Positions 14,103-64,000 are shown, numbered from the stretch's first letter. The stretch: 64,000 nucleotides of DNA from Candidatus Nomurabacteria bacterium (GCA_023898465.1 CP060223.1:160001-224000), one strand, 5' to 3'. Notes: generated by a model not told the origin, from the letters alone. Numbers and translations: made by a program.

Positions 14103-14158
14103 TTTTTGAAGCTAAAGACAGCTTGAGATAAATAGGCGATGTTTTTTATTTCTATTAC

Positions 14159-16118: not shown

Positions 16119-16127
16119 TATATTGTT

Positions 16128-18801: not shown

Positions 18802-18817
18802 CATTAACCTCAAATTT

Positions 18818-19396: not shown

Positions 19397-19418
19397 TCAG
19401 AATCTTTGCAGTATTTTC

Positions 19419-20552: not shown

Positions 20553-20563
20553 TCACTATTCAT

Positions 20564-47020: not shown

Positions 47021-48681
47021 TGCATTCAAAACTACGCATCTCAATTTTCTTTCTCGCTACAATCATTGTAGGAACCTTTGCTTTCAGGGCGATGGCTTTT
47101 ATCGAGCCGGATGATTTCCCGCCCAGTGATACAACGAGCGCACCAGTATTGACTGGTCCACAGGATCAGACTCGTCAGGGACCCCTGACAGTGCAAGGCA
47201 ACGTTAGCGCTTCCGGACCTTTAATTACTCGTGATAGTGAAATCGTTACCTCCGGTGATGTTACGGTGAGCGGTGGTGCTTCAATTTGTTTGAATGGAGA
47301 TTGTATTAACGCATGGACAGCGGCACTTGGTGATTTTGTTCGTCTCTCGCCACCGTCATCTGACGACGGATATATTCACTTGCAAGGTGGGGCTACTTTC
47401 CAAGCTGCCACTGACGCTGACTTTGCTCTATATTCTCGCGCCATTGCTCCGACAGCTAGTGCGAGTTATGGCTTTTATGGCAAGTCTTGGACTGGTCCAG
47501 TTACGAATAACTATAGCTACGGCGTACTTGGAGTGGCAGCTCATGAGGGAATAAATCCCGGAGCCCTAGCTTATGGCATTTTTGGCTGGAATGGAGATAA
47601 CCTCAATGCCTATGCAGGCTATTTCACTGGGAATGTTCAGTTAGTGAATAACTCGGAACTTTGTCTGACTGATGGTTTCACTATTGACTGTCGAACCACT
47701 TGGCCAAATGGAGCACCGGGCGAAGAATTTCTCCTCTTACAAAATACTTGGCCTACTTCAAGTCAGATTGGAAACACCGCGGTGAGTGGAAATGCGCAAT
47801 TTGCGAATGCGCTGTTGGGTGATCCGGGCGCCGGCACTCTTACCTGTGGCGACGGATTTTGTTCCGAGGATGCGATCAGTTGTCCAATTGACTGCCCGAC
47901 GATAACGAACATCGATGCGGAGTGGCTGACCTCTAGCAGCGCCCAGTTTACCTGGACTTCAAATACGACGATGACCTCAGTAGTTCAGTTTGGTCTTTCA
48001 GATCTCTATGGTGGACAAGACATTGACGGTTCATATGTCACAAGTCATTCAATCACCATTGAGGGCCTAGATAGCGATCAGGATTATCATTACCGCGTTG
48101 GTGGTCTGACGGAAAATTCTGGTGCAGCTGTGTTTTCCTCAGATCAAATATTGTCAGCCAGCGTGGTTGATATTGATCCTCCGCCAGTTCCGAGTGGATT
48201 AGTACTTGATGTGCATATTCCACCTCCATCTCCAACAGAAATCATCGACTTAACCTGGGCTCATGATTTGAGCGATAACCCAGTGGGTGGAAGTGGTTTT
48301 AAAGAATTTCATATCTATCGATTAGACTGGTCAGTTGGTCCTCCCTTTGTAATGATTGGCACCACCACCGATTTGAATTTCATTGATGATTCAGGGGATT
48401 TGAGTCAGACAAATGATTATACCTATAGTGTCACTGCAGTGGATAATAATGGCAATGAGTCAGATCCTTTCGAGCGAGCAGTGCACATTCCAGCGAGGTG
48501 TTCTTTTGATGTGGAATGTGGCGTTGATCCGGGATATCCTTTCTGCTGTACATGGAATGAAGGTGATAAAGCCTGTAGCGCAACTTCTTGTAAAGGAGGC
48601 GGGTCTCCAATTATGTTGAAGGAAGACCCTCCGCCATTAGGGCCACCTCCATGTAACGGTCCTGATTGTTATGGACCATAA
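47020..48681 (+). CDS. Secreted paralog with N-terminal EPD-motif domain, FN3 domains, and Cys-rich C-terminus.
   Basis: AFIEPDDFPPSD, SICLNGDCINAWT, TCGDGFCSEDAISCPIDCP, FN3 modules (ITNIDAEWLTSSSAQFTWTSN...YHYRV; YTYSVTAVDNNGNESD), and a C-terminal GGSPIMLKE motif. The start is at the TAATG overlap (the tracked 47005 start is 15 nt upstream). Confidence 0.8.
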   Translation: MHSKLRISIFFLATIIVGTFAFRAMAFIEPDDFPPSDTTSAPVLTGPQDQTRQGPLTVQGNVSASGPLITRDSEIVTSGDVTVSGGASICLNGDCINAWTAALGDFVRLSPPSSDDGYIHLQGGATFQAATDADFALYSRAIAPTASASYGFYGKSWTGPVTNNYSYGVLGVAAHEGINPGALAYGIFGWNGDNLNAYAGYFTGNVQLVNNSELCLTDGFTIDCRTTWPNGAPGEEFLLLQNTWPTSSQIGNTAVSGNAQFANALLGDPGAGTLTCGDGFCSEDAISCPIDCPTITNIDAEWLTSSSAQFTWTSNTTMTSVVQFGLSDLYGGQDIDGSYVTSHSITIEGLDSDQDYHYRVGGLTENSGAAVFSSDQILSASVVDIDPPPVPSGLVLDVHIPPPSPTEIIDLTWAHDLSDNPVGGSGFKEFHIYRLDWSVGPPFVMIGTTTDLNFIDDSGDLSQTNDYTYSVTAVDNNGNESDPFERAVHIPARCSFDVECGVDPGYPFCCTWNEGDKACSATSCKGGGSPIMLKEDPPPLGPPPCNGPDCYGP

Positions 48682-48685
48682 GTAT

Positions 48686-49459
48686 ATGCAAATGCAAAAA
48701 CATCAATTCGTACTAATATTTGGAACTGTGCTTTTCTCTGCTCTCTTCCTGGTCAGTAGTGCCTTGCCTGAAAAAGGGTATGCGGCTACACCTTTTGGAG
48801 GAAACAGCAATAAGCGCTTGTCTATTTATAATGGTACTTTATTACTTGATGGTAGCGCACAATTGCGCTTAGGTAATGCCGGTCGCGATATTCAAGCAAG
48901 CGGGACTCTGTATCTGCGTCCTGATGGAAGCGCGCGTGGCTCCTTCTTCAGCGGTGTTACCAATGATGTTGGTCAGCGCCTTTCATTAACTGGCGGCATT
49001 AGTGGCAGTGATACTATCCAAGCCTCCTGGATCGGAACGAATGGAGTAGACGAAACTCGAGGCGCGGTCACTGGTTATTTCCACGGCGCTCCTGATAGTG
49101 CGGTTGGTGCCGCAATTTTTGGTGAAGTACAATCATGTGGTGTTGGGCAAACCTGTTACGCTGGTTACTTTGCCGGTGGCCAAAGCACAGGAGTGCAAAC
49201 GTATACGGCGACAAATCCAAACGGTGGAGCTACTCCTGCTTTGCAAGTATTAAATGCTGATGCAAATGGCGTAGCCGCTTCCTTTACCGGTAATGTGCAG
49301 ACAAATCGGCTTATTCTCGATAATAATACTCGTTCTGCGTGTACCTGGGAGTCGGTAAGCGGTGCAGAATTAGTCTGCCCTAGCGGAAAATTATTAGCCG
49401 GTGTCCGAGCGAGTAATACAGACCCAGTCATTTCTGATATTTATTGTTGTGAGCTGTAA
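48686..49459 (+). CDS. Secreted protein made up essentially of the shared YCC domain alone.
   Basis: Signal peptide, then LSIYNGT, GNAGRDIQASGTLYLRPDGS, QTCYAGYFAGGQ, and a C-terminal CPSGKLLAGVRASNTDPVISDIYCCEL. The start is chosen just after the upstream stop. Confidence 0.75.
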   Translation: MQMQKHQFVLIFGTVLFSALFLVSSALPEKGYAATPFGGNSNKRLSIYNGTLLLDGSAQLRLGNAGRDIQASGTLYLRPDGSARGSFFSGVTNDVGQRLSLTGGISGSDTIQASWIGTNGVDETRGAVTGYFHGAPDSAVGAAIFGEVQSCGVGQTCYAGYFAGGQSTGVQTYTATNPNGGATPALQVLNADANGVAASFTGNVQTNRLILDNNTRSACTWESVSGAELVCPSGKLLAGVRASNTDPVISDIYCCEL

Positions 49460-49460
49460 T

Positions 49461-51716
49461 ATGCAATTCCCGCGATTACATAAACTACACATTTTAAGCG
49501 CGATGTTCATCGCAGTGCTTGGTTTAGGTGTCGCAGTTGGTGCCTACACCTATTCAAACTGGACTCGACAGCAAAAAGGAGCCGAGAATACGAGCGCTAG
49601 TACTGATAATGGTCCAACCGCGAACGTGGTGCAGGGGACGGTGTCGGGTTGTGTAAGCGGTACCACGCAAACGGTTGATTGGACGATGGTACGAGATGGA
49701 GAGCTTATCGTTGTTGCACATTCTGAGTCACAGGAAAAACTTTGCATTTATGATTATAACAGCGTTGCCACTTCACCGATTCGACAATATGACATGACTC
49801 AATCCGAGCGAAGTCCGGTTGTGGTAGGGGATGTGCTCTATCGAGTCAAAAAAGGCTTAAGTCCAATTCAAGTAGAGGCACGTTCACTCATCGATGGATC
49901 AGTGCTGTGGACAAAAACGATTAGCTCAACTGCGGTGGGTAGTACTTACAATGTAATAACCGCAGCTAATGGCAATCTCTATATCGGAGCGAAATTTAAT
50001 GGATCCGAGCAGAGAGTGCTCGCACTGCAGCAGATTGATGGTCAGCTGTTATGGATGCGCACTATTGAGCCAAGCTTTGGCTTTTCGACCAGCGTTGAAC
50101 AGCTTGGCGCCTTAGCAGTTAGTAGTGATCAAGTGTTTATCCAATTTGTTGAAGGTTCGCTGTCTGATGGTCGGGTTGGTTATCGTGCGCTTAATGCGAG
50201 TACTGGAGCCGTGAACTGGACTGCCGGTCCTTATGGTTCCGGAGTGATTCGGACCAGAGCGTCACTAATTTACGCTGATAATGCTATTTATGCTGCGCCT
50301 GATGCATATATTTCTCTCAGTTCAGCTACTGGAAATCAAACCTGGAATCAAGCAATGGCAGCTACGAATGAGGCCTTAAGTATCGCCTATAGCAGCACTA
50401 AGGTGTACTACTCCGAGCGACGAAGCACGCAATACGCCTATCTCGCTCGAAGTGCTATAAACGGCGGTTTGTCATGGACAGCTGGAAATTATAACGGCTC
50501 TATTGGTGATGGTCCCCTTGTCGTAGTAAATAACAACTTCCTATATCACTGCGCAAATAGTACCTTGCGAGGCATTTCCACTGTGACTGGTTTTGTTACG
50601 TTCACGGGAGTTGCGCCCACCTTCTGCAATGCCGCTGCAGTATATAATGGAATATTGTATGTGAATGGTAATGCCGGCTCAGTAGACCAAGGTAAAGTGC
50701 GTTTAATCGCAAATACTTTGCCCGCAAGCGCTACAACAACAGTTGGTGTGCCGACATGTAGCATTGATAATGGTTCTAATTACGTTGATTGCGCGAACTT
50801 ACAATATGGCGCGATTGTGACACATGCTCGGACAACCTGTACGAGTACTGCAGGAGTAAAAGAGGTGCAGTTCACCTTAACAGGGCCCGCCGGTACACAA
50901 TACTCCTCAGTAAAAGCACAAACAGTCGTCGGTGCTACCTATACTACACATGCGCCGGGAACGCTCGTAGGTAGTGGGCAATGGACCCTGACGGCAAAGT
51001 GCGTGAATAGCATTAATGAGAGTACATCGAATCAAAAGATTTGGACTGTTGGATCTGCTCCAAGTGAAGGATCTCAGAAGCTTTCTATTTACGAAGGAAG
51101 CGCTCGCTTTACTGATGGTGAGACTATGGAAGCGGGTGCGCTCAGCGGAGATGCAAATATCGACTGGATTGGCTCTGATAGTATTTATGTTCGTCCAAAC
51201 ACTTCAAACGGTTCTTCATTCTTCCAAGGTGTTTCAGCACTTGATCGGCAAAGCCTCTATTTAAGCGGCGGCATTAATGCGAAACCAAGCTTGGAAGCAG
51301 TTGGTTTAGGACAAAATGGAGTACCGTACCTAGGCTCTGCTATTGCCTCAACTTTTGATGGGGCTAGTTTTTCCTCCGGTGGCGGTGCAATTTACGGAGG
51401 AGTGAGTAGTTGCGGGGCAGGGAAAACTTGCTACGCAGGATACTTCAATAACAGCTCCGAAACTGGCTATGGTATTCTCGTTACGAATAACTCCGCGTCG
51501 CAACCTACGCTTCGGGCGGAAAATTTAGCCGGTGGCACTGCAGCCAATTTCGTGGGCGTAGCTAAGGTGAGTGGCGATCTACAGGCAGATAATAATACGG
51601 TGAATAGTTGTACCTGGACACCAGTGAGTGCAAAAGAATGTCCGGCTGGGACTGTCGCCTCTGGTATGCGATTTAGCGGAGGAGTGGTGAGCGAATATAA
51701 TTGTTGTAGTCTCTAA
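49461..51716 (+). CDS. Secreted paralog with a beta-propeller-like N-terminal region and the shared C-terminal YCC domain.
   Basis: Signal/TM, then a region of about 450 aa, then LSIYEGS, IYVRPNTSNGS, KTCYAGYFNNSS, and a C-terminal ECPAGTVASGMRFSGGVVSEYNCCSL. Confidence 0.8.
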   Translation: MQFPRLHKLHILSAMFIAVLGLGVAVGAYTYSNWTRQQKGAENTSASTDNGPTANVVQGTVSGCVSGTTQTVDWTMVRDGELIVVAHSESQEKLCIYDYNSVATSPIRQYDMTQSERSPVVVGDVLYRVKKGLSPIQVEARSLIDGSVLWTKTISSTAVGSTYNVITAANGNLYIGAKFNGSEQRVLALQQIDGQLLWMRTIEPSFGFSTSVEQLGALAVSSDQVFIQFVEGSLSDGRVGYRALNASTGAVNWTAGPYGSGVIRTRASLIYADNAIYAAPDAYISLSSATGNQTWNQAMAATNEALSIAYSSTKVYYSERRSTQYAYLARSAINGGLSWTAGNYNGSIGDGPLVVVNNNFLYHCANSTLRGISTVTGFVTFTGVAPTFCNAAAVYNGILYVNGNAGSVDQGKVRLIANTLPASATTTVGVPTCSIDNGSNYVDCANLQYGAIVTHARTTCTSTAGVKEVQFTLTGPAGTQYSSVKAQTVVGATYTTHAPGTLVGSGQWTLTAKCVNSINESTSNQKIWTVGSAPSEGSQKLSIYEGSARFTDGETMEAGALSGDANIDWIGSDSIYVRPNTSNGSSFFQGVSALDRQSLYLSGGINAKPSLEAVGLGQNGVPYLGSAIASTFDGASFSSGGGAIYGGVSSCGAGKTCYAGYFNNSSETGYGILVTNNSASQPTLRAENLAGGTAANFVGVAKVSGDLQADNNTVNSCTWTPVSAKECPAGTVASGMRFSGGVVSEYNCCSL

Positions 51717-51717
51717 T

Positions 51718-54700
51718 ATGGCATTTGTACAACGACATTCACGAGCACTATTTATCAGTATATTCGCAACACTTGTTATAGTGGCTGCTGGACTTCTTAT
51801 TGCAAAGGTTAGTTTTGCTGGGCTCGAGTGGGAGCCGCAAAAACCTCCAGAAGTATATCAGAATAACAGTAGCATCGACTTCTATAAAGTTGATTTCCAA
51901 CAAAACCCCAGCGATAATAAATACTATGGTTGGGTGGTAGGTGAGGACTTAAGCGGTAAACAATCAAGCCTCCTTTACTTTAATGGCGCTTTTTGGAAAT
52001 CAATTACCGACGACGGTTTGGGTGCGGGGTCGACATCGGACCTCTTTGATGTTTCCGCTGTTTGGAATTCAGATATTGATCAGTATCTTGTTTGGGCAGT
52101 AGGGGAAAATCAAGCGCTCTGGTATTTAACTGACAGCGAGACTGTGTGTAATAGTGAAGCTATCCCATGTCCTGATAGTCCAGCTGGAGCTGTGACTTTA
52201 AATTCGGTTGAAGGTGCTTGGTATAGCGGAGATGATAAAGTTGCCTTTTTTGTAGGTGATAACGGGCACATTTATCATGCAGTGGCTGATGATTACCAAA
52301 GCGCATTCGCCTACACCGCAGCATTTGCTACGAGCGGGACCATCCGCGATATTGATTCTTTTGACGCTGCACATACTTGGGCAGTATCAAGTGATGGCAA
52401 GATATATTTTAATAGCGATTATCTGACAAACTCGTGGGTGCAACAAGCCTCTTTCCCAGGCATTGATTTTACAGGAGTGTCAGCGGCAGATGCCAGCCAC
52501 GTATGGGCTTCGGCAATTAACGGCACAAAAGGTCAAATTTATTTTTACGACGGGTCCACCTGGTCGCTCCAATTCACTACAGTGCTTGATATTCCGCTTC
52601 ATGATGTGAGTGCATTTTATAATCCTACTTTATCTATTTATAATGCCTTTGCGGTTGGTGATATTGATTCCTCTACAGGCAACGGAGGTGTTTATCAATA
52701 TAATGGTACAATTTGGGAACGGCAGGATTCAAATAATAATGGTGAAGTATTACGCGGCATTTCTGCTGCCAGCCTTATTGAGATACGAGCCGTTGGTGCG
52801 AACACCACACTCTTAACCAGCTCACCGGGAAATATATTTGGTTGGATTTGGCTAGGATCAAGCACAAGTAATGGAAGTGGCGATGCGCTGGGATGGGGAA
52901 GCGGAAGCTGCGCTAATCTTGATAGTTGTGAAAGTGCTGGCTTTACTTACGGCGTAAACATCCGCCGCAGTGGCACCAGTCAAGGTGCTTTGTCTGGTTA
53001 CTTTTGGCTAGGGAATGCTGATCCGGATGCTTATATTCCAAATGACTGTGACACCGATCCAGGCGTCGAAGCTTGTCAATCTAATTCGAGCATTAGCTGC
53101 ACTACTGATTTTGAATGTCGTTGCGCTATTAATTCAGCAGCTTGTTTTTCAACTGGTTGGATGTCGTTTAACAAAAAAGGCTCGGATGGTGTGACTGATG
53201 AGGCTGGCACACCTCCAGCTGCACCGTACAATGATGGTGCGCAAAACTATATTGCTCGATTTGATGCAAAGACGGGTAAGGTAACTGGCTGGGCTCGTTT
53301 ACTTTCCTTATACGAAGATCCAAGCACTGGTGGCTGGATTCGTTTGCGAGGGAATGCAGTTACTCCGAATGTAGGTGACTTACCAGTCCGAGACTGTAAA
53401 AATTGTGGCAAATTCTGCAGTCTCGACACTACGTATAAGTGTACAGTTGACGCTGACTGTAATGTAGACGCAGACGGTGATGGAACAGATGAAAACTACG
53501 GCCCGTGTAATGTGAGTGTTTGTAAGATTTGTAATGCTTTAAATGATGAAACAATCGTTTCTGCAAACATGTGCTCAAATACCGGCGGCACCTCATGTAC
53601 GCGACGTTGTGAGCTTAACAACAGTATTACCTGTACCGATGATGCAGATTGTATAGGATTTGGCTCATGTGTGAATGAGACTTTTTGTGATTCTTGTGTG
53701 ACCTATGACCAATATGGTGTAGCGATTGATGACGCAACTGGTAAGATTACCGGCTATGCTTGGAGTGGCGCGTCTACTACATATGGTCAACTTGGCTGGA
53801 TTGATTTTAATCGAGCAAACTATTATAGCCAGGCTTGGTTACAGACCCAATTTGGGAATATCTACGCTCAAGCTGATATCGGTAGCGTTGGTACGCCAGC
53901 TGCTCCAGAGGGTAAATGTAATGCGACATACGTGATTAGTGCAGCTGGTACCATCACTAACTTCTGTTCGCGCTACGAAGAAATCGATCCAACCGCCCCG
54001 CCAGGGGACTACACCACTCGCCCCTTCATCCAGCAAAACTACGATGAAATTTATTATCCAACCGAGGCAAATAACTATACGAACGTCCTAGGAAAATTGG
54101 ATCCAGATGCTCTGGTGCAGGATGTGGGCGCTGGAAAAAATAAATATGGCGATGAAATCATTACGGTAAACAGCGATGCTGATTTACTTGACCTTGGCTT
54201 GTGTGATGCTGACGGAGTAACGCTTGATGGCAAGGTATATCATGTGGTTGGAAATCTCAGTATCGGTGTCTGTAATCCTGGTAGCGGTGATGTTACTGAA
54301 TTGATTATTAAGAATTCTTCACTCGCCAGTGGGTCAGGGACAATAGTGGTTGATGGTAATCTCACCATTGATATGAATATAAGCTACGAACAAAGTTCAA
54401 TCTCTAATATTAGAGATTTGGCCTCCCTGGGTGTGATGGTGAAGAAAAATATGATAGTGACTGGTGATGTAGATTCAATCGTCGGCTCCTATATCGTCTT
54501 TGGAACCGATGAGACAGAAGCTAATAAATTTAGTGGAATTAAGATTGAAAACTCCTTAATCGAACGCTCCTTTAGTGCGCAAGGTCTCATGATCGCCCGA
54601 GGCTTCAAATTCGAGCGCACATATCGTGGCACCTTAATCGATCCACAACCAGCTGAGCAGGTGGTATACGATGGACGGGTGATTGCAAATACGCCGCCAG

Positions 54701-54756
54701 GATTCCGTGATTTTGCGAAAGTCTTACCAGTTATTCGAGAAACCATACCTTTTTAA
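51718..54756 (+). CDS. Large membrane-anchored secreted Cys-rich protein (1012 aa) with an N-terminal EPQ motif.
   Basis: An N-terminal TM is followed by GLEWEPQKPPE. The middle is Cys-rich (CKNCGKFCSLDTTYKCTVDADCNVDADGDG...) and the C-terminus is beta-helix-like. It is the last gene of the paralog operon. Confidence 0.75.
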   Translation: MAFVQRHSRALFISIFATLVIVAAGLLIAKVSFAGLEWEPQKPPEVYQNNSSIDFYKVDFQQNPSDNKYYGWVVGEDLSGKQSSLLYFNGAFWKSITDDGLGAGSTSDLFDVSAVWNSDIDQYLVWAVGENQALWYLTDSETVCNSEAIPCPDSPAGAVTLNSVEGAWYSGDDKVAFFVGDNGHIYHAVADDYQSAFAYTAAFATSGTIRDIDSFDAAHTWAVSSDGKIYFNSDYLTNSWVQQASFPGIDFTGVSAADASHVWASAINGTKGQIYFYDGSTWSLQFTTVLDIPLHDVSAFYNPTLSIYNAFAVGDIDSSTGNGGVYQYNGTIWERQDSNNNGEVLRGISAASLIEIRAVGANTTLLTSSPGNIFGWIWLGSSTSNGSGDALGWGSGSCANLDSCESAGFTYGVNIRRSGTSQGALSGYFWLGNADPDAYIPNDCDTDPGVEACQSNSSISCTTDFECRCAINSAACFSTGWMSFNKKGSDGVTDEAGTPPAAPYNDGAQNYIARFDAKTGKVTGWARLLSLYEDPSTGGWIRLRGNAVTPNVGDLPVRDCKNCGKFCSLDTTYKCTVDADCNVDADGDGTDENYGPCNVSVCKICNALNDETIVSANMCSNTGGTSCTRRCELNNSITCTDDADCIGFGSCVNETFCDSCVTYDQYGVAIDDATGKITGYAWSGASTTYGQLGWIDFNRANYYSQAWLQTQFGNIYAQADIGSVGTPAAPEGKCNATYVISAAGTITNFCSRYEEIDPTAPPGDYTTRPFIQQNYDEIYYPTEANNYTNVLGKLDPDALVQDVGAGKNKYGDEIITVNSDADLLDLGLCDADGVTLDGKVYHVVGNLSIGVCNPGSGDVTELIIKNSSLASGSGTIVVDGNLTIDMNISYEQSSISNIRDLASLGVMVKKNMIVTGDVDSIVGSYIVFGTDETEANKFSGIKIENSLIERSFSAQGLMIARGFKFERTYRGTLIDPQPAEQVVYDGRVIANTPPGFRDFAKVLPVIRETIPF

Positions 54757-54838: not shown

Positions 54839-55927
54839 ATGGGTTTATTTAACAAAAAAGAAAGCTATCTCGGGATTGATATCGGCACTTCTAGTATTAA
54901 AGTGTCTGAATTCAGAAACGAAGAAGGTCGTCCGCGCTTGTTAAGTTATGGCTTTGTCGAGCAACCAAGCGAGGTTTTAAAAAGCGATTCACCCGAAGCA
55001 ATCCAGCAAGTGGTGACTACCTTGTTAGGTGTGTTTAAAAAGGGCCATATGCAAAGCCGCAAAGTGGTTTCGGCTCTGCCTAGCTACGCAGTTTTCACAT
55101 CGATTTTGAGCTTGCCAGTAATGCCGAAGAAGGATTTATACTCGGCAATTCGCTGGGAGGCAAAAAAAATCGTCCCAATGTCCCTCGATGAAATGGTGCT
55201 AGACTGGCGCTTACTCCATGACCCAGAAGAGGCGACTGATGAAAAAGGTAAAAAGAGCAAAAAGGATCAAATAAGCAGTGGAGGTCCTAAAAATACCCGT
55301 GTGCTCATTACGGCAGCTCCAAAAAACTTAGTTAAACGTTACATTGATATATTTAAACTGGCTGAGCTCGAAATCGTCAGCCTAGAAACCGAGTCATTTG
55401 CCCTTGTTCGTTCACTTCTTGGACGAGATAATTCCACAGTGATGGTGGTGGATATCGGGGCAATTGCCACGGAAATAAGCGTTATACTCGATGGTATACC
55501 TTTTCTCAATCGAAGTATCGACGTAGGGGGAGAAACTATTACGAAATCAATAGCCAATAGTCTCAATATTGATGCAGAACGCGCTGAGCAAATTAAGCGC
55601 GACTTTGGCGTTATGAGTGGGCCGAGCACGAGTCAGATTCCTCGGGTTATTGAATTTGTCATGCAGAATATCGTGAATGAGATTCGCTATATTTTATCGA
55701 TGTATCAAAATCAGGGCGAAAAGCCAATTGAAAAAATTGTGTTGTCTGGTGGATCAGCCTTCCTGCCCAATTTGCCTAGCTATCTCGAGCAGATGATTAA
55801 GCTCAAATGCTATATTGGAGATCCGTGGGCTCGAGTAGTCTACCCAGTAGAATTAAAGCCAGTGCTAGATGAGATTGGACCACGCTTTGCCGTGGCAAAT
55901 GGTCTAGCCATGCGTGAAATTGTGTAA
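54839..55927 (+). CDS. pilM: Type IV pilus assembly protein PilM (actin-like ATPase fold).
   Basis: The N-terminus LGIDIGTSSIKVSEF is typical of PilM. An acetate/sugar-kinase fold signature is present (VVDIGAIATEISV...LSGGSA). Confidence 0.85.
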   Translation: MGLFNKKESYLGIDIGTSSIKVSEFRNEEGRPRLLSYGFVEQPSEVLKSDSPEAIQQVVTTLLGVFKKGHMQSRKVVSALPSYAVFTSILSLPVMPKKDLYSAIRWEAKKIVPMSLDEMVLDWRLLHDPEEATDEKGKKSKKDQISSGGPKNTRVLITAAPKNLVKRYIDIFKLAELEIVSLETESFALVRSLLGRDNSTVMVVDIGAIATEISVILDGIPFLNRSIDVGGETITKSIANSLNIDAERAEQIKRDFGVMSGPSTSQIPRVIEFVMQNIVNEIRYILSMYQNQGEKPIEKIVLSGGSAFLPNLPSYLEQMIKLKCYIGDPWARVVYPVELKPVLDEIGPRFAVANGLAMREIV

Positions 55928-55930: not shown

Positions 55931-57244
55931 ATGGATATTAATCTCCTAAAAGATACTCAGCGATCTGAGGACCAGAAGAAAAAACAGTTGAACTCAACTG
56001 GTAATCAGGAGATGACAAATCCAGACAAGCTCCCGCCCGCTAAACCGGAGCCAAAGCTGCCTTCACGCTTTAGCACCTGGCTACAATCCCTCCGTGGTAA
56101 AAAAAATCCTAAAGAAATGCAAGAGGAAGAAATTATTCAAGAACCAATAAAAGCCCCAAAAAGTCCAACATTTGATGAGAGCGCTCGACCCAAGACCGAG
56201 GATATTTTTGCTGACCTCGACACACCCTCTTCTCAGCCTGAGTCAAATCCAGAGCCAATCATGTCAGATGAAGAGTCTTTACAAACCTTTACGCCGCCAG
56301 AGCCTAAGAAAAAGCAAGCAATGCCCAATGCGGTGAAACCCCCACGCTTCACTCAGAAGATGGAAGAAATTAAAATGACGCCTCCGCCAGAGTTACCCAA
56401 GAAAAAGGTAAAGCAGCCAAAAATTTCCTCATCGCGCGACCAATCCTTTTTGGTAAACTTGCTGCCAACTGAGTTTCAGCGATCAATTGACCCCCGTTCG
56501 AAATTAATCAGCCTGGGAATTACCGTTTTAATCACCGCCTTAGTGATTGGAGCTGCCTATGGAGCGTTGACGCTCTACCGCACCTCTATTTTAGAGCAGA
56601 TTCAGAGTCTACGTACGGAGCGCTCGGTTGTAGAAAGTACTATTAGCGATTTGCGCCCGAGTCAGCGTGAGGCGATTACCACAAAAGAGCGGACTGAATT
56701 GGTAAAGACCTTACTTGACCAGCACGTGTATTGGACAAGGTTTTTTGAAAAGCTTGAGGAATATACCATTGATGACGTGTATTACATTGGTGCCTTTAAT
56801 GGAAGTCTGGGTGGTCAAATTACGCTTTCGGCAGTTGGCACTTCCTTTAGTGCTCCGGCGCGCCAGTTAATTGCTTTTCAACAAGCCAGCGACTTTGTTT
56901 CCAGCGTGCGAATTACCTCAGCCCGTTCGGCTGATTCAGCCACTGGAACCACCGTCGGCAGCACCGGCACTGAGCAGATTTCTTTTTCGGTAACACTAAG
57001 CCTACTGCCTGACCTTTTCTATTATGATGCTTCTACCTTCCCCTTAGAGCGAATCGGCAATGTAACAACACCTTTGCCCGGTGACACTTCGCTCTTACCT
57101 GGTGCAACCGGAGTACCGGACTTAGGGACATCCACCAATACCAATACTTCAGGAGCTACAAATACGAACACCTCGACAAATACTAATTCAAGTACGAATA
57201 CCAACACCAGCACGACGCTTAATAGCAATATCTCGAACCCATGA
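55931..57244 (+). CDS. pilN: PilN-like pilus assembly protein with an unusually long Pro/Lys/Glu-rich cytoplasmic N-terminal extension and a T/N-rich C-terminal tail.
   Basis: The PilN motif (FLVNLLPTEF) lies immediately before a single TM (LISLGITVLITALVIGAAYGALTLY). A periplasmic domain follows. The C-terminus is low-complexity TNTNTS. The N-terminus also begins MDINLLK. Confidence 0.7.
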   Translation: MDINLLKDTQRSEDQKKKQLNSTGNQEMTNPDKLPPAKPEPKLPSRFSTWLQSLRGKKNPKEMQEEEIIQEPIKAPKSPTFDESARPKTEDIFADLDTPSSQPESNPEPIMSDEESLQTFTPPEPKKKQAMPNAVKPPRFTQKMEEIKMTPPPELPKKKVKQPKISSSRDQSFLVNLLPTEFQRSIDPRSKLISLGITVLITALVIGAAYGALTLYRTSILEQIQSLRTERSVVESTISDLRPSQREAITTKERTELVKTLLDQHVYWTRFFEKLEEYTIDDVYYIGAFNGSLGGQITLSAVGTSFSAPARQLIAFQQASDFVSSVRITSARSADSATGTTVGSTGTEQISFSVTLSLLPDLFYYDASTFPLERIGNVTTPLPGDTSLLPGATGVPDLGTSTNTNTSGATNTNTSTNTNSSTNTNTSTTLNSNISNP

Positions 57245-57909
57245 AAATCTTCGGCAAAAGCTTCACTGAATTCTTAATTGAGCAATACCGCTATGTATTA
57301 GTGGCGGTTGCGCTTATACTTGCTTTGGTCGGCTATCTGGTGTTTATTGGACCGGAATTGCAAGAAGTCCGTCGTTTCGGTACAGCTGACTTAAAAGATG
57401 AGAAATCGAAATTAGAAGATCGGAAAACCTATTTGACTCGTTTACAGGGCATGCTTGATGCCTATAGTACGCTGAATCAAAATAGTTTAAGCGAGTTAGA
57501 GGGGGTGCTACCGACCTATGAAGATATCCCTGACCTCTTCATTATTGTAGAGGACTTGGCCAAGCAGAGTGGCTTATCACTCAGTTCTGTTTCTATTAAT
57601 CCGGCGAATTTAGAATCCGAATCAAGCGCAGCCGGTGCAAGTACAACATCGCTGAGTCAGTTGGCTAAATCAAAGAACTTAAAAGCCTTTGACATCTCAG
57701 TGACGGCTATTAATGGTACTTCATACGAAGATTTCAAAGACTTTATTACGAATATCGAAAATAGCAACCGCCTGTTTGATGTGCGATCTATGCAGTTTAC
57801 GCCGGAGCCGCGTCAGTCAGCTGACCGTACGAGTGAGACCTCAGCTGCTACGACTCCGTACTCAATCAACTTGCGCACTTATTATATTGACGGTGAGGAG
57901 GCTTCCTAA
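57241..57909 (+). CDS. pilO: PilO-like pilus assembly protein.
   Basis: A 222-aa ORF with an N-terminal TM (YVLVAVALILALVGYLVFIG), a coiled-coil, and a periplasmic domain. It occupies the PilO position in the pilMNO order. Confidence 0.6.
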   Translation: MKIFGKSFTEFLIEQYRYVLVAVALILALVGYLVFIGPELQEVRRFGTADLKDEKSKLEDRKTYLTRLQGMLDAYSTLNQNSLSELEGVLPTYEDIPDLFIIVEDLAKQSGLSLSSVSINPANLESESSAAGASTTSLSQLAKSKNLKAFDISVTAINGTSYEDFKDFITNIENSNRLFDVRSMQFTPEPRQSADRTSETSAATTPYSINLRTYYIDGEEAS

Positions 57910-57912: not shown

Positions 57913-58206
57913 ATGGCACTGGTACAGAAAAGCAATAAAAAGAGCGTCACTATTTTACTCAGCGTCCTGGTCGGTGTCACGGTGATTGGTTTACTTGTGT
58001 ATTTCCTGGTTATCGCTCCACCGGATGTTGATCCAAATGTGAATACCTCCAATAATATTGTGCAGAGAGATTTGCCAATCTACACTACCTTTGGCGAAGA
58101 CTTGTTTGATGATCCGCGTTTCCGCGCCCTCGTGCCCTATGGTGATCTGCCGGTTGATCTAGGTGACGTGGGGAGGACTAACCCATTTGAGAAGCCATCC
58201 CCATGA
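57913..58206 (+). CDS. Small single-TM protein of the pilus operon.
   Basis: A 97-aa ORF with an N-terminal TM (VTILLSVLVGVTVIGLLVYFLVIA). It is translationally coupled, overlapping pilB by 4 nt. Confidence 0.5.
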   Translation: MALVQKSNKKSVTILLSVLVGVTVIGLLVYFLVIAPPDVDPNVNTSNNIVQRDLPIYTTFGEDLFDDPRFRALVPYGDLPVDLGDVGRTNPFEKPSP

Positions 58207-59984
58207 GCGCTGCCCGACGTAGCAGCTCGGTTCAGGACGATTCCGTCTTAGGCATGCCTAGGGCGATTATTAATGACTTGGAAGAACGGGGATTAATCAG
58301 CGAGGAAACTCTAGCTCAATATGTAGAGCAGGCTAAAGCAAAGAAGTTTACCCTCGAACGGATTCTCTTAGATACTCGAGCAGTGAGGGAAGAGGATATC
58401 ACCAAAGCAAAGGGCAAGCTTTTTAACGTGCCCTATGTTGAGCTATTTGGAAAAATAGTACGCGCTGAGGTGCTGAATCTAATACCACAGGAGTTAGCGC
58501 AAAACTACAGCATGGTAGCCTTTAGCCGAGATGCTGATGAGCTATCTGTGGCAATGGTGAATCCATCTGACTTTAAGGCGCTAGAAGCAATTGAATTCAT
58601 TGCTCGTAAAAATCGCCTCAAATTAAAGTATTTCATTGCCTCGGAAACAGGCGTGAAGCACATATTGCAGCAATACGAGAGTCTTTCCGCTGAAGTTGAA
58701 GAAGCGCTCAAGGATACAGAGTCAGAAGGCGACGCAGAGGTAAAGTTAAACATTGCCGAGCCGGGCATGGAGGAGGTAATCCGCCAAGCTCCGGTTTCAA
58801 AGATGGTTTCGGTTATTATGCGACACGCAGTAGAGGGTAAAGCTTCTGACGTGCACATCGAGCCAGTCGGCAATGAATCTCGCATTCGCTATCGTATTGA
58901 TGGTGTGCTGCATACCTCGCTTGTGTTGCCAAAGCATGTCCATGCCTCAATCGTTGCGCGCATTAAGGTGCTGTCTAATTTGAAGATTGATGAAACGCGT
59001 GTGCCGCAAGATGGTCGCTTCCGCATGAATATTGACGGGAGAGATGTTGACTATCGTGTTTCTACACTGCCGCTCGTCAACCAAGAAAAAGTCGTGATGC
59101 GTATTCTCGACACTAGTGGCGCCATGACTGATTTGCAGGATTTGGGTTTCGACGGGCGCAATTACGAAATTATTCAGGAGAACATTGATAAATCCCACGG
59201 AATGATTTTAGTCACTGGTCCGACCGGTTCTGGTAAGTCAACCACCCTCTATGCCATTATGAGTCGCTTGAATGAGGAATCTGTGAATATTGTGACGCTG
59301 GAAGATCCGGTTGAATATTATATGAAAGGAGTAAACCAGTCACAAATTAATCCTGACGTTGGACTTACCTTTGCAGCAGGTTTGCGCTCCATCTTACGTC
59401 AGGACCCTGACATCGTCATGGTTGGAGAAATTCGGGATACTGAAACTGCAGATTTGGGTGTGCACGCCTCATTGACTGGTCACGTGGTACTCTCAACGCT
59501 TCACACCAACGACGCTTTTGGAGCAATACCGCGTTTTATTGACATGAAGATCGAACCATTCTTACTTGCTTCATCGCTCAATGTTGTCATTGCCCAACGC
59601 CTGGTCCGTCGTATTTGTCAGCATTGTACGACCACGATGGAGATACCGGCCGCCTTGCAAAAAGAGGTACAAGAGGGCTTAAAAGAATTAAAGCCTGAGC
59701 AGTTACCAAAAGGTATTAGTCTAAATTCGCCTAAGTTTTATCGAGGTAAAGGTTGTGTACGCTGTGAAAATACCGGCTATAAAGGCCGTGTTGCTATTGC
59801 TGAGGTGCTAGATATGACTGAAAATTTGAAGAAGGTGATCACTGGTGAACAGGCGAGAATTTTAGAGAACATTCACGAAGAATTTAATAGACAGGGCCTA
59901 TTAACCATGAAGCAGGATGGCTTACTGAAGGCTCTGCGCGGCTTAACCACCATTGAAGAGGTGTGGGACGCTACCCGAGAATAA
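58203..59984 (+). CDS. pilB: Type IV pilus assembly ATPase PilB (GspE family), catalytically intact.
   Basis: Walker A is LVTGPTGSGKSTT. The Asp box is EDPVEY. Walker B is IVMVGEIRDTETA. The His box is GHVVLSTLHTNDA. The tetracysteine motif is CQHC...CVRC. It also has an N-terminal GSPII-type domain. Confidence 0.9.
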   Translation: MSAARRSSSVQDDSVLGMPRAIINDLEERGLISEETLAQYVEQAKAKKFTLERILLDTRAVREEDITKAKGKLFNVPYVELFGKIVRAEVLNLIPQELAQNYSMVAFSRDADELSVAMVNPSDFKALEAIEFIARKNRLKLKYFIASETGVKHILQQYESLSAEVEEALKDTESEGDAEVKLNIAEPGMEEVIRQAPVSKMVSVIMRHAVEGKASDVHIEPVGNESRIRYRIDGVLHTSLVLPKHVHASIVARIKVLSNLKIDETRVPQDGRFRMNIDGRDVDYRVSTLPLVNQEKVVMRILDTSGAMTDLQDLGFDGRNYEIIQENIDKSHGMILVTGPTGSGKSTTLYAIMSRLNEESVNIVTLEDPVEYYMKGVNQSQINPDVGLTFAAGLRSILRQDPDIVMVGEIRDTETADLGVHASLTGHVVLSTLHTNDAFGAIPRFIDMKIEPFLLASSLNVVIAQRLVRRICQHCTTTMEIPAALQKEVQEGLKELKPEQLPKGISLNSPKFYRGKGCVRCENTGYKGRVAIAEVLDMTENLKKVITGEQARILENIHEEFNRQGLLTMKQDGLLKALRGLTTIEEVWDATRE

Positions 59985-60009: not shown

Positions 60010-60420
60010 ATGACAAAGGCAACAAGTAGTGCAAAAGAGCAGTCAAAAAAGAAGAATCCCCAAGTGCTTATTGTGGAGGATGATACCTTCCTGTCTGGAA
60101 TGTACGTCACCAAACTTGAGCTAGAGGGGATTGATGTAGAGTTGGCCAGTGATGGTCAGCAGGCTATTAATGTCGTGCAGAAGAGGAGACCAGATGTCAT
60201 CCTGCTCGATGTGGTGATGCCTAAGATGTCGGGATTCGATGTCTTGACTTGGTTAAAAAAGACCAAAGAGACAAAAGATATCCCGGTTATCTTATTAACC
60301 AATTTGGGAGAGAAAGAAGACGTACAAAAAGGCTTGAAGCTTGGCGCTGTCGATTATCTCATCAAAGCACATTTCTTGCCATCAGAAGTGGTAGAAAAGA
60401 TTAAGCGTATTGTTCGCTAG
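60010..60420 (+). CDS. Stand-alone response-regulator receiver domain (CheY/PilH-like).
   Basis: The acidic pocket is LIVEDD. The phospho-acceptor lies in ILLDVVMP. A conserved Thr is in LLT and a Lys in YLIKA. There is no output domain. The start was chosen at MTKATSS to avoid overlap with pilB. Confidence 0.8.
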   Translation: MTKATSSAKEQSKKKNPQVLIVEDDTFLSGMYVTKLELEGIDVELASDGQQAINVVQKRRPDVILLDVVMPKMSGFDVLTWLKKTKETKDIPVILLTNLGEKEDVQKGLKLGAVDYLIKAHFLPSEVVEKIKRIVR

Positions 60421-60421: not shown

Positions 60422-61498
60422 ATGCCCTCATCCGACACTATAGCTATTCAGAAAATTTTGGCCTCGGCGGCTGATTATGGAGCCTCTGATATTCACATTG
60501 TGCCAGGTAATCCACCGACCCTGCGCGTGGACGGTAAATTAGTGCCTTTAGAGAATGAAGTAGTGGTCACGCCGGACCTGATGACCGCTTTAGAAGAACT
60601 TTTACTTACCCCTGAGCAACGTGAGCGTTTCCATGCTGACAAGGAGCTTGTCACAGCAACCAGCTTAGAGAATCGCCAACGTTTTAAAGCCAGCTTTTTT
60701 TACCAAAAGGGTTTACCAGCCAGTTCGCTCCGTTTAATTGCCAGCCGACCAAAGTCTGTCCGAGATTTAGGCTTACCGGATAATATTGAGGACCTCGCCC
60801 GTTTGTCATCTGGACTCGTGGTTATTTCAGGTCCCTACGGATCAGGACGGTCTTCAACGGTGTCCGCCTTACTCCAAACAATTAATCAGCAGCGCGCCGC
60901 TCATGTGGTTACGATTGAGTGGCCGATTGAGCATCTGTTTGTCAACGAGAAGAGTATGATAGAGCAGCGTGAAGTAGGTCGTGACACACAATCGTTTACC
61001 AAGGCGATTGAAACGGCAACTCGAGAAGATGTGGATGTGGTGATGGTGTCTGAGATGGAGGATCCAAATGTGGTGCAGTCAGTGTTGCAAATTGCCTCGA
61101 CTGATCGTTTAGTCGTGAGTATGTTATTAGCCGATTCGGTGCCGCAAACGGTAGAAAAAATCCTTGACGCATATCCGGCTGAGGAACAGGAGCAGGCTCG
61201 ACGTATTTTTGCCGAACATCTGGGTGGTATCGTGTGTCAGCGTCTCTTACCGCGTGTGGGCGGCGGGCGCATTGTGGTAGCAGAAATCCTGCTGCCCACT
61301 GATCCGGTGCGCGCCCTTATTCGCGATGGGCAGATTGGTCAGCTCAAGACTATGCTACAAAGCTCCCAAGAGGAGGGATTAGTTTCTTTTGATCGTTATT
61401 TAGCCGCTTTAGTACGTAATGGTGAAATATTAGTTGATGATGCATTAGCCAATGCAAATGATCGGGCCGAGCTCTCAGCCGCCCTACGAGGACGATAA
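60422..61498 (+). CDS. pilT: PilT-family retraction ATPase homolog with degenerate catalytic motifs.
   Basis: It aligns along its full length with PilT (GASDIHIVPGNPPTLRVDG, NQREVGRDTQSF, AEEQEQ, GGGRIVVAEILL). However, Walker A is GPYGSGRSS (Lys replaced by Arg), the Asp box is EWPIEH instead of EDPIEF, and the His box is DRLVVSMLLAD instead of GHLVFGTLHT. The ATG at 60422 follows a TTG at 60410. Confidence 0.8.
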   Translation: MPSSDTIAIQKILASAADYGASDIHIVPGNPPTLRVDGKLVPLENEVVVTPDLMTALEELLLTPEQRERFHADKELVTATSLENRQRFKASFFYQKGLPASSLRLIASRPKSVRDLGLPDNIEDLARLSSGLVVISGPYGSGRSSTVSALLQTINQQRAAHVVTIEWPIEHLFVNEKSMIEQREVGRDTQSFTKAIETATREDVDVVMVSEMEDPNVVQSVLQIASTDRLVVSMLLADSVPQTVEKILDAYPAEEQEQARRIFAEHLGGIVCQRLLPRVGGGRIVVAEILLPTDPVRALIRDGQIGQLKTMLQSSQEEGLVSFDRYLAALVRNGEILVDDALANANDRAELSAALRGR

Positions 61499-61504: not shown

Positions 61505-62713
61505 ATGCCAAATTTTGAATATACTGCACGAGATAGTCAGGGAAATACCAGTACAGGTATTGTTGAAGCGCCAACTGAGAGCATAGCGCAGGATGTTTTG
61601 CGTGAACGCGGTTTGATAGTGACCGGTATTAGCGAGCGTCAGCGCAAAGCGCTTTTTCAAACCTCGCTGAACATATTTAATCGCGTGCCTCGTCGTGATG
61701 TCACTATTTTTTCACGGCAGCTGGCAGTGATGATTTCGGCCACGGTACCGATTGTGCAGGCTTTGCGTATCCTCGTGAAGCAGACAGAAAACGTAGCTTT
61801 TAAGATTATTATCTCAGAGGTTGCTGATGAGGTTGACGGTGGATCAAAGCTTTCCGCCACTTTAGGGAAGTATCCTCATGTGTTCAATGATTTCTTTGTG
61901 CACATGATTCGATCTGGTGAAACCACGGGTAAGTTGGATGAAACGCTCAACTATTTAGCTGATCAGCAGGAAAAAGACTACGATTTGATCTCTAAGATCA
62001 AAGGCTCGATGACCTATCCGGTCTTTATTCTGGGTGCTTTGGTGGCTGTCGGTATCCTTATGATGATTTTTGTGATTCCACAGCTGACCGATATCCTGAC
62101 AGCTGGTGGGCAAGAGCTGCCGATTATGACGCGAGCTTTAATCGCTACCTCGGCATTTTTGCAGACAAAGTGGTGGGTGTTGCTTATTGTGATTGCGCTT
62201 TTGTACGCGGCATATCGCTTTGTGGAGCGGTCTGAGCAAGGTCAAGACGTGATTGATCGCTTGAAGCTGCACTTCCCAATTTTTGGACAAATTTTTCAGC
62301 GTATTTACCTTGTCCGTTTCGCGCGCAGCTTATCAACCTTAATCTCCAGCGGCGTGCCAATTACTCGCTCACTCGAGATTGTGGCTGATGTGATTGATAA
62401 CCGTCTCTATCGTAAGTTAACCAAAGAGACTATTGAAGCAATTGAGGGAGGTAAATCTATCTCCTATGTCTTTGCGCAAAATAAAGATATCCCTCCTATG
62501 TTGACGCAGATGATGAGCATTGGTGAATCAACTGGTAAGCTTGATTTCATTTTAGAAAAGCTGGCAAATTTCTACAGTCGTGAGCTAGAAAACAACGTAG
62601 CAAACCTGGTTAGCCTGATCGAACCTTTGATTCTGGTGGTTATGGGTGTGGCAGTTGCCTTCCTCGTTATCGCTATTCTCTTGCCGATGTATAATTTGTC
62701 ATCAGCCATTTAG
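61505..62713 (+). CDS. pilC: Type IV pilus platform protein PilC (GspF family).
   Basis: A 402-aa ORF with two GspF-type repeats and three TM helices. The N-terminus is PNFEYTARDSQGNTSTGIVEA. Confidence 0.85.
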   Translation: MPNFEYTARDSQGNTSTGIVEAPTESIAQDVLRERGLIVTGISERQRKALFQTSLNIFNRVPRRDVTIFSRQLAVMISATVPIVQALRILVKQTENVAFKIIISEVADEVDGGSKLSATLGKYPHVFNDFFVHMIRSGETTGKLDETLNYLADQQEKDYDLISKIKGSMTYPVFILGALVAVGILMMIFVIPQLTDILTAGGQELPIMTRALIATSAFLQTKWWVLLIVIALLYAAYRFVERSEQGQDVIDRLKLHFPIFGQIFQRIYLVRFARSLSTLISSGVPITRSLEIVADVIDNRLYRKLTKETIEAIEGGKSISYVFAQNKDIPPMLTQMMSIGESTGKLDFILEKLANFYSRELENNVANLVSLIEPLILVVMGVAVAFLVIAILLPMYNLSSAI

Positions 62714-62892: not shown

Positions 62893-63459
62893 ATGAAAAA
62901 AGGATTCACACTTATTGAGCTCTTGGTCGTGATCGCGATCATCGGTATTTTGTCTGCAATTGGGCTCGTCTCACTAAACGGTGCACGTGAAAAGGCCCGT
63001 GACGCCCAAGCCAAGTCTGACCTTGGTCAGATGCGCACTGCGTTGACCTTGTTTGCTGATGATAACGGTGGAAGCTTTGTTGGAGTGCAGGTAGCAGGCG
63101 CAAGTAATACGCCTGATTGTTCTGGTGACACAAACGACGCCGGATCGACCGCAGCTGGTAATGATTAAGTGTGGGATAGCAACGACGGTTACCGATTATC
63201 TCTCAACCTATCTAAATTCACCACGAGCTTGGTTACTGGCGCGGACGCGTGCGAAGGTCGTTATGGTTATGTGGCAAATGAATTCAGCTGCTACCGTAAA
63301 CGACGCTGATGATTATGTGTTGTTCTATAGACCGAAACAGGTGATGGACAAAACTACTACAAGCTTAGCGCTGACGGGCAGTCGGTTGATTATTCAGATA
63401 ATGAAACAGGTGTTCCTACCTGTCCAAACACGGGTGCGGCTTGTACGCTAAATCCGTAA
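62893..63459 (+). pseudogene. Type IV pilin gene that has an intact prepilin N-terminus but is interrupted by in-frame stops and compensating frameshifts (pseudogene or silent-cassette-like).
   Basis: The class III signal is MKKGFTLIELLVVIAIIGILSAIGL. An in-frame TAA lies at 63166. The same frame then continues with pilin-like sequence (VWDSNDGYRLSL...GADACEGRYGYVANEFSC), matching GIWDGTGG...YGYVSNG of the downstream pilin. Further in-frame TGA, TGA and TAG lie at 63307-63330. The +1 frame carries DDYVLFY, similar to SDYGLYY in the neighbouring pilin. The original frame ends ...TGDGQNYYKLSADGQSVDYSDNETGVPTCPNTGAACTLNP* at 63459, just before a terminator. Confidence 0.65.
62959..63035 (+). repeat. 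77-nt segment perfectly identical to 63619..63695 (the conserved pilin N-terminal region).
   Basis: A direct nucleotide comparison of the two pilin genes shows the flanking codons differ at synonymous sites while these 77 nt are identical. Confidence 0.9.
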
Positions 63460-63470
63460 GGTTGATAAAC

Positions 63471-63552: not shown

Positions 63553-64000
63553 ATGAAAAAAGGATTCACACTTATTGAGCTCCTAGTTGTTATCGCGATT
63601 ATTGGAGTACTTTCTGCTATTGGGCTCGTCTCACTAAACGGTGCACGTGAAAAGGCCCGTGACGCCCAAGCCAAGTCTGACCTTGGTCAGATGCGTACAG
63701 CATTAACTTTATTTGCTGACGATAGCGGTGGATATTATCCAGATGTACAAAGTGATAGTCCTGGTGTGCCAGATGAGAGCGCTCCCAATTTAACTGAGGG
63801 CGGTATTTGGGATGGCACCGGTGGGTCAATAATTCCAAGTTATCTATCAGCAGAACTTGAATCCGGCTCAAGTACTCCTTACGGTTATGTATCGAATGGA
63901 CTAGATGCTACTCCAAATGTATCTAGCGATTATGGGCTCTATTACTTGTTAGAATCTGGCGATGGAGCGCGCTACTACGTGCTTACTGCCAATGGAACAG
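63553..64000 (+). CDS. Type IV pilin (major pilin candidate), 3' end beyond the window.
   Basis: MKKGFTLIELLVVIAIIGVLSAIGLVSLNGAREKARDAQAKSDLGQMRTALTLFADD... with GGGGGT as a Shine-Dalgarno 6 nt upstream. The ORF is open to the end of the window. Confidence 0.85.
   Translation, partial: MKKGFTLIELLVVIAIIGVLSAIGLVSLNGAREKARDAQAKSDLGQMRTALTLFADDSGGYYPDVQSDSPGVPDESAPNLTEGGIWDGTGGSIIPSYLSAELESGSSTPYGYVSNGLDATPNVSSDYGLYYLLESGDGARYYVLTANGT

Follow-up and report, generated by a model that had tools for sequence, protein, structure and literature searches.

The window analysed here, 64,000 nucleotides from a Candidatus Nomurabacteria bacterium (GCA_023898465.1, CP060223.1:160001-224000), holds a type IV pilus operon in which the place of the retraction ATPase gene pilT is taken by a PilT-derived gene (60422..61498, plus strand) encoding a protein of 358 residues, hereafter PilT'. 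We propose, with slightly better than even confidence, that PilT' is an ATP-binding, hydrolysis-impaired pseudo-ATPase that would serve as a nucleotide-dependent switch, clutch or placeholder, and not as a power-stroke motor. The strongest argument comes from sequence comparison: in a large clade of the Patescibacteria (candidate phyla radiation, CPR), to which the source organism belongs, the residues for nucleotide binding are kept whereas those for catalysis are lost, and the clade appears to have been selected to bind. An earlier note on this DNA had read the gene as an impaired PilT-like protein of regulatory or structural role, and had proposed comparing its substitutions with those of orthologs and estimating the ratio of nonsynonymous to synonymous substitution rates (dN/dS). 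The window is part of a contig of 1,082,586 bp, presumably a closed genome.

Overall fold and family membership of PilT'

PilT' is identical to the GenBank protein USN53717.1, annotated as 'PilT/PilU family type 4a pilus ATPase'. Its open reading frame (ORF) is intact and full length, running from the ATG at 60422 to the stop codon that ends at 61498. A phmmer search against the PDB sequences aligned residues 7-357 with residues 13-364 of A. aeolicus PilT (PDB 2EWV), with an E-value of 8e-77. The sole gap in this alignment is a single residue near residue 316, distant from the catalytic motifs, so the motifs are not misaligned, and misalignment is ruled out as the source of the substitutions described below. 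The AlphaFold2 model, computed with 33 relatives as input, has a predicted local distance difference test score (pLDDT) of 91.2 and a predicted template modelling score of 0.84. Superposition by Foldseek onto the ATP-bound PilT4 of G. metallireducens (PDB 6OJX) yielded a template modelling (TM) score of 0.93-0.95 and a root-mean-square deviation of 1.6 Å, which, together with the phmmer alignment, bears out the claim of the earlier note that the protein aligns with PilT from end to end. The model also resembles the PilU of P. aeruginosa (PDB 9N32), with a TM score of 0.81-0.84.

Against the NCBIfam model TIGR01420, PilT' scores 319.9 bits, a marginal pass of the 319.1-bit cutoff, compared to 441.2 bits for the canonical Patescibacteria PilT P0117. 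Fold, length and operon position and, by a narrow margin, the NCBIfam score place PilT' in the PilT/PilU family. Among the catalytic features that define the family, the Walker A lysine and the His box are absent, and the Asp box and the tail of Walker B are only partly retained; on these grounds PilT' should not be classed among the retraction ATPases.

Substitutions at the nucleotide-binding site

The motifs of PilT' were read off the phmmer alignment with 2EWV and compared with a canonical reference of 70 PilTs from several phyla (Aquificota, Actinomycetota, Patescibacteria and others); G. metallireducens (Gm) residue numbers equal those of the window protein minus six. All four motifs lie on the plus strand. 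The Walker A motif or P-loop (residues 137-145, 60830..60856) reads GPYGSGRSS versus GPTGSGKST, in which the lysine is replaced by Arg143 whereas Gly137, Gly142 and Ser144 are kept. The Asp box (residues 166-171, 60917..60934) reads EWPIEH versus EDPIEY, with Trp167 in place of the aspartate and with Glu166 and the Mg-binding Glu170 kept. Walker B and its tail (residues 205-214, 61034..61063) read DVVMVSEMED versus DVIFVGEMRD; here glycine is replaced by Ser210 and arginine by Glu213, and the catalytic Glu211 is kept. Of the His box there is a remnant, TDRLVVSMLLAD (residues 227-238, 61100..61135), versus the canonical TGHLVFGTLHTN, where the first histidine is replaced by Arg229 and the γ-phosphate histidine by Leu236. 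The loss of the Walker A lysine, the altered Asp box and the loss of both His-box histidines had all been pointed out in the earlier note, and each is confirmed by the alignment.

In the canonical reference, K143, D167, G210, R213 and H236 are each found in 70/70 sequences and H229 in 69/70. As these positions are 99-100% invariant, the combination of losses in PilT' is not ordinary variation. The arginine finger R87 is present in PilT'. The C-terminal PilT motif AIRNLIRE reads PVRALIRD, in which both arginines are kept, the asparagine found in 66/70 canonical PilTs is replaced by Ala298, and the glutamate by Asp302.

Roles of the Asp-box residues E160-E164 of G. metallireducens PilT have been assigned from structures, and Gm H230 and E164 are the only residues of the two box motifs that touch ATP or Mg (PMC6858323, PMC5424180). 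In the PilT of P. aeruginosa, the substitutions H229A and E204A abolish twitching (PMC5424180, PMC6858323). The γ-phosphate histidine of the His box (T-G-H-x5-L-H-T-N) has been reported as conserved in every member of the PilT/VirB11-like family, a claim that is qualified by the clade described in the following.

A clade that keeps binding residues and loses catalytic ones

In a collection of 5.8 billion proteins, 115 of the best 120 relatives share the PilT'-type active site and the other five are canonical. The consensus of the PilT'-type relatives reads GPFGSGRT, IEKPIE, VSEMEE and SSRLVISTMNTD over the four motifs. A profile search of 1.84 billion representatives at 50% identity returned, in the best 150 matches, 74 single-domain proteins, at least 54 of which are degenerate, indicating that the degenerate clade is deep and diverse. 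Rooted with the cores of PilB, a neighbour-joining tree of 128 sequences unites all degenerate sequences (60/60) in a single clade, with a bootstrap of 100/100; this clade is nested within the canonical PilTs of Patescibacteria, where its sister is the pair P0111/P0112, itself canonical. A one-off degeneration in this genome is ruled out by the large Patescibacteria clade with its conserved replacement residues; the comparison with orthologs found the same substitutions to recur.

Canonical PilT has 87 positions with a conservation of at least 90%; the clade preserves 45 of them, and the remaining 42, which are altered or relaxed, lie mostly around the nucleotide site. Among the 54 clade representatives, the kept residues include G137 (54/54), G142, Ser/Thr144, E166, the Mg-binding E170 and the arginine finger R87 (53/54 each), as well as a basic residue at position 143 (51/54; R in 31, K in 20). 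By contrast, the catalytic Glu211 is kept in 19/54 only, being replaced in the other 35 by K, Q, D, S, V, G, N and others; the Asp at 167 (Gm D161) is kept in 13/54, the Arg at 201 (Gm R195) in 9/54, and neither the Thr at 227 (Gm T221) nor the His at 236 (Gm H230) in any (0/54). In the absence of the latter two, the contact at the closed interface that corresponds to Gm T221-H230 cannot form in the manner of canonical PilT. The arginine of the GEMRD motif is essentially gone across the clade. Since the binding residues are near-invariant whereas the catalytic and coupling residues are free or replaced, the clade appears to be selected for Mg-nucleotide binding and cross-subunit sensing, and not for fast hydrolysis. 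The description of Walker A as degenerate in the earlier note stands as to the lysine, but with the binding residues and the arginine finger almost invariant, the site is better read as one that binds but does not turn over.

The 132 closer relatives of the window protein retain G137 and G142 without exception (132/132 each) and have R in 109, K in 22 and M in one at position 143. The replacement residues themselves are conserved (R143 in 83%, R229 in 86%), and Glu211 is retained by 111/132 of the closer relatives, as it is in the subclade of the window protein. Another degenerate subclade, found at the loci L010 and L024, keeps the Walker A lysine (GSFGSGKTT) and is devoid of the His box.

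Purifying selection and a reversed evolutionary rate

By the method of Nei and Gojobori (NG86), the dN/dS of PilT' in three locus pairs is 0.034, 0.056 and 0.113, figures that are rough because dS exceeds 1 (saturated) in all pairs. They fall in a similar range to those of PilB (0.039-0.060) and PilC (0.025-0.059) in the same pairs. The gene pilT' is clearly under purifying selection in the clade, a pattern that, together with the low retention of Glu211 among the clade representatives, supports well the earlier reading of an impaired, regulatory or structural PilT-like protein. In all 153 pairwise comparisons of degenerate loci, the identity of PilT' falls below that of PilB (mean of 44.7% vs 55.7%), whereas at canonical CPR loci the identity of PilT exceeds that of PilB in 99% of 105 pairs (54.0% vs 46.5%). 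Relative to both PilB and PilC, PilT' evolves the faster, opposite to the situation at canonical loci.

These data also bear on the alternative that PilT' is still a working, perhaps slow, retraction ATPase with a rebuilt site, in which Arg143 stands in for the P-loop lysine and Arg229 for the γ-phosphate histidine. The window protein has Glu211, the Mg-binding Glu170, Ser144 and the arginine finger R87, most of its closer relatives keep Glu211, the two replacement arginines are themselves conserved, and the gene is under strong purifying selection in the PilT slot of the operon. However, in P-loop NTPases the exchange of the Walker A lysine for arginine typically preserves binding and blocks hydrolysis. 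In addition, the replacement of Glu211 in the majority of the wider-clade representatives argues that catalysis is not what the whole clade is selected for, and the evolutionary rate is reversed relative to PilB. We regard a rebuilt motor as improbable overall: it is unlikely for the clade as a whole, and possible for the subclade of the window protein.

Organization of the type IV pilus operon

The operon in the window has the order pilM-N-O-x-pilB-RR-pilT'-pilC-pilins, where x is a small ORF and RR a response regulator gene, all on the plus strand. The actin-like PilM (54839..55927) is 47-75% identical to the PilM-position ORFs of related loci, which carry PilM_2. It is followed by a gene at the pilN position (55931..57244) that has no Pfam match and whose position is conserved in L001, L088 and L090; the encoded protein of 437 residues ends in a low-complexity tail rich in Thr, Asn and Ser (TNTNTSGATNTNTSTNTNSSTNTNTS). 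Then come PilO (57241..57909; Pfam PilO, 1.4e-5) and, just before pilB, the small conserved ORF of 97 residues (57913..58206), at whose position L001, L088 and L090 have a gene of 91-95 residues. PilB (58203..59984), the extension ATPase with an MshEN N-terminal domain, retains GPTGSGKS, EDPVE, GEIRD, GHVVLSTLHTN and two zinc-binding CxxC pairs. The earlier note had stated that an adjacent PilB keeps all of its motifs; this holds for the motifs but not for the adjacency, as a CheY-like receiver gene (about 60010-60420) intervenes.

This gene encodes a single-domain CheY-like response regulator (60010..60420, counted from the first ATG of an ORF listed from 59953; Pfam Response_reg, 1e-26), which keeps the acidic pocket (EDD), the phospho-acceptor Asp (LLDVVMP), the Thr (LLTN) and the Lys (LIKA). 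The ATG of pilT' begins one base past its stop codon. The ORFs of the window that were scanned against Pfam include no histidine kinase as its partner. Downstream of pilT' lies the gene for the platform protein PilC (61505..62713), which has two T2SSF domains according to Pfam.

Two tandem pilin genes follow pilC and have a block of about 75 identical bases in common in their 5' parts. The first, with an N_methyl signal (62893..63460), is apparently disrupted: it has an in-frame TAA at 63166-63168, with pilin-like sequence beyond, and a short frame disruption at about 63290-63335, and it is either a pseudogene or the product of an assembly error. The second (63554..64000) runs off the window.

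As the neighbouring pilin gene is disrupted, some decay or assembly error in the locus is apparent, and pilT' itself could be taken for a decaying, functionless gene (an incipient pseudogene) or a sequencing artefact, the more so as the window protein is the most divergent of its subclade, deviating at 15 of the 148 positions conserved in the subclade, compared to a median of four. The deviations, however, are nearly all swaps between similar residues (such as E18D, L70F, T136S and F139Y), with E226S as the main exception. We rejected this explanation, which we consider very improbable, on the intact, full-length frame, the confident AlphaFold2 model, the recurrence of the same substitutions in well over a hundred independent sequences, and a clade dN/dS far below 1.

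At least 21 degenerate loci were collected from species-representative genomes, 20 of them by genome scan and one (L001) by gene look-up. The arrangement pilM...pilB-receiver-pilT'-pilC is found in 19/21 of the listed loci (L001, L004-L009, L011-L017, L019, L021, L027, L028 and L030). In the other two, L010 and L024, the degenerate gene adjoins pilM instead of occupying the slot between regulator and pilC, and no pilB is found within 10 kb. The arrangement of the 19 loci, including the receiver, occurs with a canonical PilT in L022, L025, L026, L041, L042, L048 and L077. In seven degenerate and ten canonical loci, the pilT slot is followed 6-9 kb downstream by the single-copy gene ligA. In L090, which belongs to the subclade of the window protein, the order is pilT'-pilC-...-pilD-pilins-ligA-gatC-gatA, and in the canonical L084 it is pilT-pilC-pilin-pilD-pilins-ligA-gatC-gatA. 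The shared slot and the synteny to ligA-gatC-gatA indicate that pilT' is the positional counterpart of the ordinary operon pilT and not an extra paralog. In a single-gene neighbour-joining tree of LigA with 14 taxa, taken as a marker of the organisms, the hosts of degenerate and canonical PilT are not cleanly separated.

Most loci labelled Saccharibacteria carry a canonical PilT, in agreement with the published statement that the Walker boxes of Saccharibacteria PilB and PilT are well conserved. Six loci (L005, L006, L012, L015, L016 and L021) come from third-party-annotated metagenome-assembled genomes titled 'uncultured Gammaproteobacteria bacterium' and have Patescibacteria-type pilus operons; their labels look wrong, because the closest relatives are Patescibacteria sequences.

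Is there a second, canonical PilT?

A further explanation is that PilT' is catalytically dead and docks to the machine in order to recruit a separate canonical motor of the PilT/PilU type, encoded elsewhere in the genome. Such an arrangement has a precedent in V. cholerae and A. baylyi, where PilT mutated in Walker A or Walker B still supports retraction powered by PilU whereas a pilT deletion does not; in V. cholerae, ATPase-dead PilT alleles serve PilU in this way (PMC6821130).

A candidate partner is offered by an orphan family of canonical PilT in Patescibacteria, located away from pilB and pilC (L081, L065, L089 and L092-L094; neither gene within 10 kb), which could represent a second retraction motor. 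Four of its loci were examined (L081, L065, L089 and L092), and it has many relatives at 66-100% identity. Genes of this family have QueH/VanZ-like genes, a PDZ protease, PGK and enolase among their neighbours.

The protein library also contains tandem PilT-PilT fusions of 700-1000 residues (P0238-P0245, P0280 and P0295). In P0245, P0239, P0280 and P0295 one half is degenerate, for instance with GNRGSGRS and devoid of the His box; its companion is largely canonical in two of them (P0245 and P0239) and partly degenerate in the other two (P0280 and P0295). The existence of such degenerate/canonical fusions shows that pairs of this kind can work together.

On the other side, tblastn with PilT' and PilB found just these two genes in the window, with no other PilT-like gene, nor does a further PilT-like gene, canonical or not, occur in the 10-kb surroundings of some 21 degenerate loci. 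Among the 120 degenerate and 240 canonical clusters listed, from lists of the best 120 hits each, no canonical cluster was traced to a degenerate-bearing contig, the one of 1,082,586 bp included, which is weak evidence against a partner; P0050 and P0391, for example, both from ENA assemblies, are on separate contigs. The genome-scan patterns miss the P0117-type canonical PilT (0/122), so that one match per genome is uninformative on a second copy. This P0117-type PilT, at least 81% identical over the 120 clusters listed, sits in the same ligA-anchored slot and is hence an alternative occupant and not a partner of PilT'. In L002, L003, L084 and L085, an extremely conserved family of canonical PilT, with an identity of 81% or more over 120 clusters, heads a pilT-pilC-pilin-pilD operon directly after mraY; as neither pilB nor pilMNO is found within 10 kb, these genomes must keep their assembly genes elsewhere. 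Taken together, we consider it unlikely that PilT' acts as an adaptor for a canonical motor.

A proposed role for PilT' in pilus dynamics

For the favoured pseudo-ATPase, we infer hexamer formation, docking onto PilC, ATP binding without turnover and a role in pilus dynamics. PilT' retains the PilT fold and presumably also the hexamer and the site for docking to the PilC/PilM platform. Mg-nucleotide would be bound and, through the arginine finger, sensed at the interfaces between subunits. With much of the hydrolysis and coupling machinery lost, namely the Walker A lysine, the γ-phosphate histidine, the first His-box histidine, the Asp-box aspartate and the GEMRD arginine, ATP turnover would be slow or none. 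The hexamer might then dock in competition with PilB; one possibility is that it displaces or antagonises PilB, such that fibre growth stops and the fibre can depolymerise with no dedicated motor. The timing may be governed by the CheY-like regulator, whose gene lies between pilB and pilT'.

Two versions of this mechanism can be drawn. PilT' may be the only PilT-like protein, in which case the pilus would retract with no dedicated motor or hardly retract; alternatively, it might be an adaptor for an intact motor of the PilT/PilU type encoded elsewhere. The first version in its full extent, that in a large part of Patescibacteria, this Nomurabacteria genome included, the sole PilT-like protein of the machine is an ATP-binding, non-hydrolysing hexamer that permits a naturally evolved, motor-independent retraction of a type IVa-like pilus, as a PilB-displacing clutch possibly gated by the CheY-like regulator of the operon, is put forward as a tentative and rather doubtful proposal.

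Several observations weigh against a non-hydrolysing PilT'. The window protein and its subclade keep Glu211, the Mg-binding Glu170 and the arginine finger, and the conserved pocket arginines R143 and R229, gained by the clade, could be partial substitutes for the lost residues; slow residual hydrolysis in the window protein is therefore possible. The closest of the best 120 relatives is merely 62% identical to the window protein, so that constraint on its own lineage is not measurable; it also diverges more than any other member of its subclade, and with saturated dS the dN/dS values of the clade are approximate. Long-branch attraction may inflate the monophyly of the fast-evolving clade in the neighbour-joining tree. 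Finally, the regulator is not specific to the clade, as it is also present with canonical PilT.

In Patescibacteria, type IV pili are considered key to the uptake of DNA and to attachment to the host. If the PilT of a large clade indeed cannot hydrolyse ATP, inferences on retraction would need revision for those lineages, and if it is also their sole PilT, then retraction, DNA uptake and host attachment would run with no dedicated motor. The clade also offers a set of sequences for testing the role of nucleotide binding alone in a PilT hexamer.

Other features of the window

A type IV secretion-like cluster occupies 9127-23636. It includes a TrbL/VirB6-like membrane protein (9127-12345), a P-loop ATPase of the TraG/VirB4 type (16822-18801), two proteins with a T4SS-pilin domain (19356-20552 and 22446-23636, the latter fused to an SLT transglycosylase) and a DsbA-like thioredoxin (21811-22449). 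Very large ORFs of 1478, 1563, 1169, 1012 and 771 residues are found at 33-9123 and 41883-54756, the second group lying directly upstream of pilM. They have only Big_7 or fibronectin-III-like domains, or no Pfam match, and may encode surface or pilus-associated proteins.

Comparison with known systems

The genome papers on Patescibacteria that were searched routinely record PilT as present and treat it, with no comment, as the retraction ATPase. A literature search not covering all journals found no published account of a clade of degenerate or pseudo-ATPase PilT in CPR.

Compared to canonical PilT (PDB 2EWV, 6OJX and the P. aeruginosa 3JVV), PilT' is the same in length and in the two-domain fold and aligns over the full length, with 30-38% identity in the structural alignments, and its gene likewise neighbours pilC in the type IV pilus operon. 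The P-loop glycines, the Mg-binding glutamate, the arginine finger and the catalytic glutamate are common to both. However, PilT' differs in the exchange of the Walker A lysine for arginine, in the loss of the Asp-box aspartate, the GEMRD arginine and both His-box histidines, in the reading PVRALIRD for AIRNLIRE, and in evolving faster, not slower, than PilB.

PilU, the accessory retraction ATPase that depends on PilT, belongs to the same TIGR01420 family, but keeps its catalytic motifs and is encoded next to pilT, whereas PilT' is degenerate and stands alone in the PilT slot. With these motifs and no second PilT-like gene in the window, PilT' does not have the features of a PilU.

The archaellum protein FlaH/ArlH and the Tad pilus protein TadZ are ATP-binding accessories, non-hydrolysing or slowly hydrolysing, that regulate or position the real motor. 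They share this concept with PilT', but their folds (KaiC/RecA-like and ParA/MinD-like, respectively) are unrelated and not derived from a motor.

A further parallel is offered by the engineered PilT variants K136A and E204A of V. cholerae and A. baylyi, which, like PilT', are presumed not to hydrolyse ATP and yet are functional at the machine. These are laboratory mutants that depend on PilU, whereas the state of PilT' is natural, ancient and selected. The PilT' clade would be the counterpart in nature, shaped by selection, of the ATPase-dead PilT alleles used in Vibrio, and one that separates the docking or structural role of PilT from its role as a motor.

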